Part shown: in pieces, positions 5,073 to 7,312 of the stretch
Position numbering within the stretch: position 1 is the first letter of the stretch
Layout: every line of letters starts with the position of its first letter
DNA from: a virus
Taxonomy: Duplodnaviria > Caudoviricetes
Length of the DNA stretch: 61,839 nucleotides
IMG/VR virus record: IMGVR_UViG_3300021185_002489
Span: 1 to 61,839 of that record
Reading direction: 5' to 3' (one strand)
Notes under the pieces: generated by a model
The model's input: the letters and a program-made list of their open reading frames with translations, nothing else
What the model was told of the DNA's origin: nothing
Database searches by the model: none
Made by a program: the position numbers and the translations under genes

Positions 5073-7312
5073 TGTACAAACAAACTTTATATAAAATACA
5101 CACAGATCACTTATCTGATAAAAAGATAAAGAAAGATAATAAATATAAAAAATTTAATTACGGTTATAACGAAGAATTAGATTGCGTTATAATAAGTAAA
5201 GATGGTACTTTAGGTGATATATATGAAATTCAAGGTCTAAAGGTAGGAATACCTAAAACTCCAAATAAAATAAATGGTGAAGACCTTAAAAAAGAAGATC
5301 AAGTATTTAAACAAATATCTAAACCTGCATCGCTTAGTGGAATAAAAAATTTAATTGATTTTAAAGAATATGCAGAAGATGTTAAAGAACAATACTATGA
5401 ATATATTGAAAATGAGTTTAATTATCGTTCTAATGGCTACTGGTTCATGTGCAACAATGAACCTTGTTACATTACAGGATCGCACTATATATACCTCAAC
5501 TGGACAAAAATTGACGTTGGATCACCTGATTTTAGGCAAGCAAACAGAATATTTTACTACTTTTGGGAAGCTTGCAAGGCAGATAGAAGATCTTACGGCA
5601 TGTGTTACCTTAAGAACAGACGATCTGGGTTTAGCTTTATGGCATCCTCAGAAACAGTTAACTTGGCAACAATATCAAAAGATTCTAGATTTGGGATCTT
5701 ATCTAAGACTGGTGCAGATGCAAAGAAGATGTTCACAGATAAGGTGGTACCAATATCCATTAATTACCCGTTCTTTTTCAAACCAATACAGGACGGTATG
5801 GAAAGACCCAAAACAGAACTATCCTATAAAATTCCGTCCAGAAGACTCACAAGAAACTCCATCAAGGAGAGTTATAGCCAGGAGGAACGTAGGCAGGAAT
5901 TACGAGGGCTTGACACCACGATCGACTGGAAGAACACGGGCGACAACTCGTACGATGGAGAGAAATTACAACTCCTCGTCCACGACGAATCGGGGAAATG
6001 GGAAAAGCCGGATAATATCCTCAACAACTGGAGGGTCACGAAAACGTGTCTCAGGCTCGGTGCAAAAATAGTTGGCAAGTGCATGATGGGATCTACATCT
6101 AATGCAATTGATAAAGGAGGTGATAATTTTAAAAAATTATATTACAATTCAGATGTTACAAATAGAAACCGCAATGGCCAGACTGCAAGTGGACTATATT
6201 CTTTGTTCATACCTATGGAATGGGGATACGAAGGGTTTATTGATAAATTCGGATATCCTGTCTTCGAAGCTCCATCAGAACCGATTAAAGGAATTGATGG
6301 AGAGCAGATTTTTAATGGAGTCATCGATCATTGGAACAACGAGGTCGAAGGTTTAAAAAATGATAGTGATGCTCTTAACGAGTATTATAGACAATTTCCA
6401 AGATCTGAAAAACACGCGTTTAGAGATGAAACTGTAAATTCTTTATTTAATCTAACTAAAATATATGAACAAGTAGATTATAATGAGGAGATGACTTTAA
6501 AAGGTTATGTAACAAGAGGATCTTTTTCTTGGAAAAATGGAATAAAAGATACAGAGGTTGTATGGTCACCAAATAAAACAGGAAGATTCAATCTATCTTG
6601 GATACCACCTGTTTCTTTACAAAATAATATAATTACAAAAAATGGAACTAAATACCCTGGTAATGATGGCCTTGGATCCTTCGGCTGCGATAGTTATGAC
6701 ATTAGTGGTACTGTCGGTGGTGGCGGTTCTAATGGCGCTCTTCACGGATTAACAACCTGGAGCATGGTTAGTGACGTTCCAAACAGTAAATTTTTTTTAG
6801 AATATATTGCAAGACCACAAACCGCAGAAATATTTTTTGAAGATGTGCTTATGGCGTGTATATTCTATGGCATGCCTATATTAGCAGAAAATAACAAACC
6901 AAGATTATTATATCATTTTAAAAGAAGGGGTTATAGAGGTTTTTCTATGAACCGCCCCGATAAAACAAAAATTAAATTATCTAAAACAGAATTAGAGCTA
7001 GGTGGAATACCTAACTCTTCGGAAGATATTAGACAAGCACACGCCGCTGCAATTGAAACGTACATAGAATCTCATGTAGGTAACTTAGGTGAATCTCACG
7101 GAAATATGTATTTTCAAAGAACCTTAGAAGATTGGGCTAGATTTGATATTTCAAAGCGAACAGCACATGATGCTTCTATTAGTAGTGGACTTGCTATAAT
7201 GGCTTGTCAAAAACATTTATACCGCCCCGTAGGGGAAAGAAAAATAAAAAAGCTTGATTTTGGATTATCTAAATATACAAATTCAGGATTAAGAAGTCAG
7301 ATAATAAAGTAA
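5072..7312 (+). CDS. terL: Terminase large subunit
   Basis: Walker A-like KNRRSGFS, Walker B LLVHDESGKW, nuclease motifs GCDSYD and HDASISSG; precedes the portal. Confidence 0.9.
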   Translation: MYKQTLYKIHTDHLSDKKIKKDNKYKKFNYGYNEELDCVIISKDGTLGDIYEIQGLKVGIPKTPNKINGEDLKKEDQVFKQISKPASLSGIKNLIDFKEYAEDVKEQYYEYIENEFNYRSNGYWFMCNNEPCYITGSHYIYLNWTKIDVGSPDFRQANRIFYYFWEACKADRRSYGMCYLKNRRSGFSFMASSETVNLATISKDSRFGILSKTGADAKKMFTDKVVPISINYPFFFKPIQDGMERPKTELSYKIPSRRLTRNSIKESYSQEERRQELRGLDTTIDWKNTGDNSYDGEKLQLLVHDESGKWEKPDNILNNWRVTKTCLRLGAKIVGKCMMGSTSNAIDKGGDNFKKLYYNSDVTNRNRNGQTASGLYSLFIPMEWGYEGFIDKFGYPVFEAPSEPIKGIDGEQIFNGVIDHWNNEVEGLKNDSDALNEYYRQFPRSEKHAFRDETVNSLFNLTKIYEQVDYNEEMTLKGYVTRGSFSWKNGIKDTEVVWSPNKTGRFNLSWIPPVSLQNNIITKNGTKYPGNDGLGSFGCDSYDISGTVGGGGSNGALHGLTTWSMVSDVPNSKFFLEYIARPQTAEIFFEDVLMACIFYGMPILAENNKPRLLYHFKRRGYRGFSMNRPDKTKIKLSKTELELGGIPNSSEDIRQAHAAAIETYIESHVGNLGESHGNMYFQRTLEDWARFDISKRTAHDASISSGLAIMACQKHLYRPVGERKIKKLDFGLSKYTNSGLRSQIIK
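5397..6071 (+). CDS. Putative lipoprotein overprinted in the +1 frame of terL
   Basis: 224-codon ORF; N-terminus MNILKMSLIIVLMATGS-C has a lipobox-like Cys18; Arg/Ser/Thr-rich tail; terL codon usage is shifted across the overlap. Confidence 0.55.
   Translation: MNILKMSLIIVLMATGSCATMNLVTLQDRTIYTSTGQKLTLDHLILGKQTEYFTTFGKLARQIEDLTACVTLRTDDLGLALWHPQKQLTWQQYQKILDLGSYLRLVQMQRRCSQIRWYQYPLITRSFSNQYRTVWKDPKQNYPIKFRPEDSQETPSRRVIARRNVGRNYEGLTPRSTGRTRATTRTMERNYNSSSTTNRGNGKSRIISSTTGGSRKRVSGSVQK

Follow-up and report, generated by a model that had tools for sequence, protein, structure and literature searches.

The question raised by this locus is whether an unusually long open frame running through a terminase gene, on the same strand, is itself a gene and, if so, what its product would do. 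The stretch analyzed here, hereafter the window, is a whole 61,839-bp contig of an uncultivated virus (IMG/VR record IMGVR_UViG_3300021185_002489) with a podophage-type gene layout. The element in question is an open reading frame (ORF) of 238 codons in the +1 frame of terL, the gene for the terminase large subunit (TerL). As judged from codon choice in the window and its relatives, positions 5355-6071 are likely to be a selected, very probably translated, same-strand overprinted gene. The original prediction, made from the letters of the window, had gone further and assigned the ORF to a nested lipoprotein. The two frames and the parts of the nested ORF are as follows:

5072-7312, + strand: terL, the host gene, 746 residues; phrog_6681 terminase large subunit, E 1.2e-165 over residues 24-728
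5343-5354, + strand: two +1-frame stops, 5343-5345 and 5352-5354, just 5′ of the nested ORF
5355-6071, + strand: nested ORF (+1 frame of terL) of 238 codons, closed by TAG at 6069-6071
5355-5357, + strand: first possible start, TTG
5397-5399, + strand: ATG start proposed in the original prediction
5397-5447, + strand: signal-peptide-like segment, a Lys-bearing n-region followed by a 12-residue hydrophobic run
5448-5450, + strand: Cys codon TGT, residue 18 counted from ATG 5397, candidate lipidation site
5451-5759, + strand: core of the product, open in nearly all ORF-bearing relatives (that of L037 stops at about 5745)
5760-6068, + strand: basic tail rich in R, S, T, and G

The open +1 frame in the window and its relatives

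Over the 746 codons of terL, the +1 frame contains 37 stops, none of them at 5355-6068, and +1 alone is open, the +2 frame containing 99 stops. The run lies where it had been described and, as originally stated, no other same-strand alternative-frame run in the window is as long; those that follow measure 145, 129, 112, and 109 codons. None of 5000 synonymous-codon shuffles of terL reached 238 codons (mean 62, maximum 179), nor did any of 5000 draws from genome codon usage (maximum 158); a shuffle confined to the region produced 7.3 stops on average and was stop-free in 0 of 5000 cases. The reported switch of terL to C- or G-ending codons is real: G+C content at third codon positions (GC3), taken per 30 codons, is 0.07-0.23 before 5432, 0.33-0.73 over 5432-6061 (0.63 and 0.73 at 5882-6061), and 0.20 from 6062, with the shift beginning directly after the hydrophobic segment. 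Codons that could create +1 stops are also placed selectively. All 10 NTA codons of the ORF region are followed by a pyrimidine, compared to 25 followed by a pyrimidine and 34 by a purine in the rest of terL (Fisher p 0.0009), and all seven NTG codons are followed by a base other than A; because of the following base, none of these 17 codons gives a +1 TAA, TAG, or TGA.

Relatives were drawn from an IMG/VR scan, as the best 80 of at least 599, with 68-94% TerL identity. The original prediction had named interruption of the frame in close relatives as the outcome that would speak against it. Across the codon alignment, 72 of 81 loci have an open +1 frame of 131-241 codons, whereas 11-19 stops interrupt it in the other nine, an outcome that favors the predicted nested gene. 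Same-amino-acid codon pairs differ inside the region at 0.37-0.45, no lower than outside, and the open frames are thus not mere young copies of each other. Against a null built from each sequence's own codon usage, ORF-bearers have 0 stops in the core (5412-5759) where 4-7 are expected, apart from six loci with an early ORF end, at about 5745-5760, each of which has one boundary stop, while the nine relatives without the ORF have 3-6 stops where 5-6 are expected. Per-sequence local shuffles were stop-free in 0-42 of 1000 cases. The context of core NTA codons is likewise divided, at 225 to 2 in favor of non-stop contexts in 73 ORF-bearers and 37 to 33 in the nine relatives without the ORF.

The compositional shift follows the frame rather than the TerL domain. 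Core GC3 is 0.32-0.53, compared to 0.15-0.30 outside, and the excess of terL GC3 within each genome's own ORF averages +0.25 (n=73, minimum +0.08), whereas it vanishes from the genome's own stop onward to 6068 (-0.01, n=41) and in the nine relatives without the ORF (-0.005). Since these nine show background GC3, the TerL domain does not need the GC3 island. Held-out contigs from metagenome-assembled genome (MAG) bins, a set that omits L099, for which an incorrect ORF at 25% identity had been selected, and L101, which lacks the region, carry the ORF in 8 of 12 usable loci, over 160-239 codons, with GC3 of 0.42-0.51 vs 0.15-0.25 elsewhere in terL; the four held-out loci without it have background, flat GC3. 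Thus, these codon-level comparisons show selection at work in two ways: the frame is kept stop-free, and composition is shifted over precisely the part of terL that a given genome could translate in +1. Translation of the frame, with selection against its truncation, is the simplest account.

The history of the frame can be traced outward and inward from the clade. Neither the frame nor a rise in GC3 was found in the outgroups, in which the longest +1 runs are 39-87 codons: the GenBank phage MW202828 (63% TerL identity) and, among cultured phages at 30-45% identity, the Flavobacterium elemo phages, Cellulophaga phi19:3 and phi38:1, and Tenacibaculum Gundel_1. This distribution fits a birth of the gene within the clade. 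The older of the two frames is terL, which is conserved apart from its N-terminal extension. A TerL tree of 77 rows, built without the overlapped columns and without the truncated contigs L041, L042, L045, L066, and L076, shows the ORF kept in 41 of 41 rows of clade A, to which the window belongs, and absent from the outgroup. Rows lacking the ORF are scattered in clade B beside ORF-bearing sisters, which implies at least four losses.

Entry into the frame is possible only at 5355 or later because of the +1 stops at 5343 and 5352. At the 5355 column, clade A mostly has ATG (37 of 45 sequences) and clade B mostly TTG (24 of 27), while ATG at the 5397 column is rarer in clade A (6 of 45) than in clade B (19 of 27) (L045 is omitted from these and the other clade counts). 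For most clade-A relatives the open stretch begins only three codons before the start, and in L026, L028, L031, and L032 the ATG of the 5397 column is the first start after a stop. Further in-frame ATGs of the window stand at 5370, 5379, 5397, and 5412. A start codon, ATG or TTG, lies upstream of the hydrophobic region (h-region) in nearly all members, but at two different columns. In the proposed mechanism, ribosomes would initiate within the late terL message, at TTG 5355 or ATG 5397.

Composition, constraint, and N-terminus of the predicted product

What appears to be maintained in the product is its composition. At the second position of +1 codons, C and G replace A and T, turning Lys, Asn, Ile, and Tyr into Arg, Ser, Thr, and Gly; selection acts on product composition. 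The predicted isoelectric point (pI) is 9.8-11.8 in 15 sequences, and that of the window's tail (residues 137-238, 5763-6068) is 11.8. Tail length varies among relatives, with at least 13 different end points from 5745 to 6069. An AlphaFold model of the product from 47 sequences has a helix at residues 2-31, with a predicted local distance difference test (pLDDT) of 65-76, and values below 50 elsewhere (mean 39.9). These features suit a protein that is young and accessory, basic and disordered, and that begins with something like a signal peptide. Databases hold 47 unnamed gene calls of the same nested ORF and no other relatives of the family. Two of these calls, P0042 and P0047, switch between TerL and the +1 frame along their length; these chimeras are most likely assembly frameshift errors and not natural fusions.

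Several results weigh against the reading of 5355-6071 as a gene. Four minus-strand genes of the window also contain +1 open runs, each longer than in 1000 of 1000 synonymous shuffles:

31260-31649, - strand: run of 129 codons in the gene at 30283-32025
32373-32704, - strand: run of 109 codons in the gene at 32376-33344
36211-36549, - strand: run of 112 codons in the gene at 35876-36697
37799-38236, - strand: run of 145 codons in the gene at 36957-38663

GC3 in these runs is at most slightly raised, and they may be further nested ORFs or a sign of a liberal null. Because four other genes also exceed it, the gene-wide single-genome shuffle is liberal, and it is therefore the comparative evidence that carries weight. 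At the amino acid level, the reduced synonymous variation that the original prediction had expected did not appear. Raw synonymous diversity in clade A is 0.37 in the core and 0.43 in the tail, compared to 0.31-0.33 outside; after normalization for composition, the core shows a mild dip (0.65 vs 0.72-0.77) and the tail none. OLGenie-like counts on 12, 8, and 4 hand-picked pairs gave a core dNN/dNS of 0.85 (clade A) and 0.90 (clade B) vs control values of 0.61 and 0.64, and dSN only 7-13% below control (0.337 vs 0.362 in clade A, 0.508 vs 0.582 in clade B). Identity of the +1 products of distant ORF-bearers equals shuffle expectation (0.39 vs 0.40 for the window and L056), and the +2 control frame behaves like the +1 frame in this test (23 chosen pairs). 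Purifying selection on +1 amino acids was thus not detected by the diversity, OLGenie-like, or identity tests. In the +1 protein alignment A1, which comprises the window and 46 of 65 distinct +1 translations, the four invariant columns and three of the four nearly invariant ones are read as fixed by Met or Trp codons of terL.

Other points on the same side concern family, start, signal, and retention. The libraries searched gave no family, fold, or structure match for the product: Pfam returned PF07155 alone (E 0.029, below its cut-off); PHROGs, NCBIfam, and PADLOC returned no match; a PDB profile search gave nothing usable (best E 0.4); and ESM Atlas gave hypothetical proteins only (best score 0.85, recognition 1583). 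The start codon is not uniform, a few loci having only TTG or a late ATG. The hydrophobic run of clade A is the default of terL, since a null is equally hydrophobic: an Asp-, Asn-, Tyr-, and Phe-rich terL peptide written with the usual T-ending codons provides the signal "for free". The gene is also dispensable, as its inferred losses in clade B indicate.

The N-terminus was the basis of the lipoprotein assignment. Translated from ATG 5397, the product reads as originally quoted, with Cys as residue 18, and a positively charged n-region and short h-region are present. Members of clade A share a Lys-rich stretch, a hydrophobic run of 12-15 residues, and then Cys. GC3 has not yet risen over this segment, whose K, N, I, L, and M residues need A or T as the middle base of the +1 codon. 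The clade-A Cys is the forced +1 reading of a terL Met-Cys (ATG TGy; ATG-TGC in the window), and its conservation is uninformative since terL dictates it. Clade B lacks that Met-Cys in terL and has a hydrophobic run and Cys 14 codons downstream, the Cys again being forced, by a terL Met-Tyr. Here, the hydropathy of the run is 2.2-3.4, whereas a null built on the amino acids and codon usage of terL gives about 0.8-1.8; per locus, 0-47 of 500 such draws are as hydrophobic as the real sequence, and in 21 of 27 loci no more than 15 are. Relatives without the ORF show no hydropathy excess and have a stop inside the clade-B run. The relocation of hydrophobic run and Cys in clade B suggests that an N-terminal targeting signal is required.

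Whether this signal is that of a lipoprotein is less clear. Hydrophobic runs among the relatives are 11-15 residues long, which is less than a membrane span requires, and only 2-3 small residues separate their end from Cys, a spacing like that of lipoprotein signals. Compared to the lipobox consensus [LVI][ASTVI][GAS]C, as given in PMC6139136, the T-G-S-C of the window misses at -3 and -2. Among the 45 clade-A sequences, I-G-S-C occurs in 30, T-G-S-C in 9, T-G-L-C in 5, and I-G-L-C in 1, and in 27 of 27 clade-B sequences T or I stands at -1 of the different, downstream Cys; four MAG loci have L. A looser, PROSITE-like pattern matches the window. In favor of a lipoprotein signal, 39 of 45 clade-A sequences use TTC for the Phe codon that sets Ser or Leu at -1, whereas TTC is used at 118 of 375 (31%) other core Phe codons, the clade-A rows not being phylogenetically independent. 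The proposed lipoprotein thus has its n-region, short h-region, and Cys, but it is terL that imposes the Cys, and the residues before it fit the consensus poorly. On these sequence features, export of the product is given about an even chance, while its being a true, lipidated lipoprotein is a distinctly more doubtful proposition.

Alternative explanations and known counterparts

The strongest form of the lipoprotein reading holds that the product is a true signal peptidase II (SPII) substrate, cleaved by LspA, acylated at Cys18, and placed in the outer membrane, where it would substitute for an outer-membrane spanin (o-spanin) or a disruptin or would block a receptor to keep out superinfecting phages. 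This is judged unlikely. Speaking for it are the n-region, the 12-residue h-region, and the Cys; the TTC preference that keeps Ser at -1 in clade A; an h-region that ends 2-3 small residues before Cys in both clades despite its moved position; and a strongly cationic product in a genome where no spanin was found elsewhere. Roughly 13% of phages of Gram-negative hosts have no identifiable spanins, according to PMC6139136, and a cationic peptide is described as performing the outer-membrane step in phage phiKT (10.1101/515445), both of which count for this explanation. Against it stand a Cys forced by terL in both clades, an off-consensus lipobox with T or I at -1 throughout clade B and L in the four MAG loci, and the lack of an inner-membrane spanin (i-spanin) partner and of a C-terminal transmembrane domain (TMD). 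The mature part, at 100-206 residues, is also much longer than Rz1-type o-spanins. Furthermore, ORF-less relatives have no consistent compensating exported gene, as far as the five loci with upstream DNA go. A quite improbable alternative is that the open frame is a by-product of a GC3-rich island of rare codons that serves terL itself, through pausing for ATPase folding or through mRNA structure, and in which stops are scarce. The open frame does coincide with the GC3 island, the +1 product shows no detected amino acid constraint, and the four minus-strand genes also exceed the shuffle null. Yet shuffles that keep the local codon mix expect 4-7 stops where none is seen, NTA and NTG codons are present only in non-stop contexts, and the same conserved domain is encoded at background GC3 by relatives without the ORF. 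The island also ends at each genome's own +1 stop, in at least 13 places, and only +1 is open, the +2 frame being full of stops.

The remaining explanations accept that ribosomes enter the +1 frame and differ in what they make of it. One supposes that translation is selected while the polypeptide is irrelevant, so that +1 ribosomes tune TerL output or message stability in the manner of an upstream ORF. Drifting amino acids under selected openness and a variable 3′ end agree with it; it leaves unexplained the C/G shift at +1 second positions, which stop avoidance does not need, the codon-driven hydrophobic N-terminus of clade B, and the TTC preference before Cys. We know of no precedent for regulation of this kind, and this explanation appears very improbable. 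Almost no credence is given to a programmed frameshift that would fuse at least 94 N-terminal residues of TerL to the +1 frame with no independent initiation. Both frames do lie on one strand and one message, but stops at 5343 and 5352 close the +1 frame directly 5′ of the start column, the open stretch of most relatives begins 0-3 codons before an ATG, and no +1 slippery site was seen in a by-eye check. In addition, a selected signal-like N-terminus makes sense only if it is free. Set against these alternatives, the reading as an overprinted gene remains the one preferred here.

Same-strand nested genes of phages are an already known kind, and several offer points of comparison. The nearest known case by place is that of T7 genes 19.2 (38016-38273) and 19.3 (38553-38726), which, like the ORF of the window, lie wholly within a terminase gene on the same strand (gene 19, 37370-39130, NC_001604.1; their nesting is described in PMC8365609). 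Their offsets leave a remainder of 1 modulo 3, that is, the +1 frame as here, and both are annotated "hypothetical". In contrast, they encode 85 and 57 residues vs 238 in the window, the terL family and host phylum differ, and no sequence likeness to the product is apparent, without a formal comparison. By product type, the nearest are the embedded o-spanins, lambda Rz1 in Rz and T7 18.7 in 18.5, the latter annotated as nested: as proposed here, a small envelope-directed protein with a lipoprotein-type signal occupies another frame of a late gene, an architecture described in PMC6139136. However, the host gene there is the i-spanin partner in the lysis cassette, whereas here it is terL with no i-spanin, and the product of the window is several times longer, with an off-consensus lipobox.

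By evolutionary style, the nearest case is phiX174 E, an overprinted +1-frame gene in gene D whose product has an N-terminal hydrophobic functional segment and a basic, poorly constrained C-terminal part. E has 91 residues and belongs to a small single-stranded DNA phage without holin or endolysin, whereas the window genome has both and the h-region of its product (11-15 residues) is short for a membrane span. The phiKT "disruptin" gp28, from a phage without spanins, is cationic, like the product here, and is proposed to breach the outer membrane (10.1101/515445). This likeness is one of description only, and gp28 is a stand-alone small gene for which the accessible part of that source (10.1101/515445) mentions no signal peptide or nesting.

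Lysis context, hosts, and implications for the phage clade

The nested ORF lies in the late operon, 1.3 kb downstream of the holin-endolysin pair, among the following features:

494-3124: virion/tail-fibre gene
3128-3541: holin (phrog_3427)
3541-3690: very hydrophobic ORF of 49 residues, no family match
3695-4039: endolysin, 114 residues (phrog_894)
between the endolysin gene and terL: three small genes
4268-4852: ORF of 194 residues, PHROG annotated "co-chaperonin GroES", E 6e-22
directly after terL: ORF of 806 residues; MW202828 counterpart annotated P22-like portal

The earlier statement that no spanin is evident holds in a crude test: PHROGs name only the holin and endolysin, and a six-frame scan with the lipobox pattern gave no other long candidate. 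Small ORFs beside the holin and endolysin genes have either no TMD or no long periplasmic part. Several assignments of the nested product within known lysis schemes were rejected. As an o-spanin subunit it would lack an i-spanin partner (an N-terminal TMD plus a periplasmic coiled coil), its host gene being terL, and a single-gene lysis protein of the phiX174 E type, the sole lysis gene of a small phage, does not agree with the presence of holin and endolysin. Nor does the product resemble a unimolecular spanin of the T1 gp11 type, described as a lipoprotein signal plus a C-terminal TMD (PMC6139136): it has no C-terminal TMD, and its hydropathy is -0.7 to -2.0 over the last 100 residues.

Relatives without the ORF gave no consistent pattern of a compensating exported gene among the five such loci with upstream DNA. 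L054 has an extra 180-residue ORF (L152:1950-2493) between the GroES-like gene and a 90-residue gene before terL; by eye its start looks GIY-YIG-like, so that it may be a homing endonuclease. L070 has a 116-residue ORF with a classical cleavable signal peptide in the lysis region (L168:387-738). The endolysin and 49-residue ORF of the window were not found next to terL in clade-B relatives by tblastn; these relatives have a holin-like gene followed by an 81-90-residue ORF with a coiled-coil look. The GroES-like ORF is kept just 5′ of terL in both clades, and annotation of the relatives has terL followed by a portal gene.

The host gene itself is recognized by PHROG 6681 alone, with no sequence match for TerL in Pfam, NCBIfam, or PDB and nothing found in a profile search against PDB; its roughly 95 N-terminal residues are a non-conserved extension. 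An AlphaFold model of TerL with 33 sequences was poor (pLDDT 43.4, predicted template modelling score 0.39). Invariant columns include a P-loop-like K-N-R-R-S-G-F-S at 5612-5635 and an h-h-h-h-D-E at 5972-5989, both labelled by eye. The original placement of the nested ORF over the ATPase Walker motifs is plausible to the eye.

Four seawater or marine metatranscriptome libraries, each from a different study, include contigs with sequence near-identical to 4800-7400, indicating that the window phage or a very close strain is common in the sampled seawater. One such contig, of 773 nucleotides, spans 5233-6005 with a single difference from the window. These contigs indicate presence only, and not transcript ends, strand, or level, with DNA carry-over possible; three "skips" in RNA contigs were disregarded as single low-depth contigs. 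By MAG bin label, 9 of 14 loci fall in Bacteroidota-type bins and the others in Woesearchaeota, Clostridium, Parvibaculum, and Shapirobacteria bins, labels that mark the binning of phage contigs as unreliable. The hosts of the clade are probably Flavobacteriia.

For the preferred reading, a selected overprinted gene, a coherent course of events can be proposed. The gene would have arisen by overprinting on the +1 frame of terL in an ancestor of this uncultivated marine podophage clade. Following internal initiation, the Lys-rich n-region, the hydrophobic run of 11-15 residues, and the Cys would act as a Sec signal; in the clade of the window the Cys may be lipidated, and the signal would otherwise be cleaved or kept as an anchor. 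The envelope would then receive a very basic chain of about 100-200 residues (pI 10-12) with no predicted fold, for which length and composition would matter and exact sequence would not. With at least four losses and many truncations, this would be an accessory gene. Given its late expression, the gene would most likely serve at the envelope, either at the time of lysis or in keeping out superinfecting phages. As specific assignments from sequence, an aid to lysis is tentative and fairly unlikely, and an action in superinfection exclusion more unlikely. The fullest version, that a de novo protein born in a motor ATPase domain is an envelope lysis or exclusion factor, namely a disordered polycationic chain, anchored by lipid or by its signal, that fills the role of the absent spanin at the outer membrane across a widespread clade of marine Flavobacteriia phages, is likewise an unlikely, if far-reaching, possibility.

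The nested ORF overlies the most conserved part of an essential motor protein and has gone unannotated because annotation pipelines forbid long nested genes; a literature search turned up no report of a selected gene within terL. To our knowledge, 238 codons would place it among the longest nested genes of tailed phages. If the reading is correct, metagenomes preserve the pre-gene state (in the outgroups), the relocation of the signal, the extension and truncation of the tail, and at least four deaths of the gene, and each stage of this life history would be readable from the third codon positions of terL. Since full, shortened, and ORF-less relatives coexist, the clade constitutes a natural experiment on gene birth, on the shaping of composition before sequence, and on loss. 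Should the product act on the envelope, it would also bear on how phages of Bacteroidota, in which spanins are rarely recognized, pass the outer membrane.

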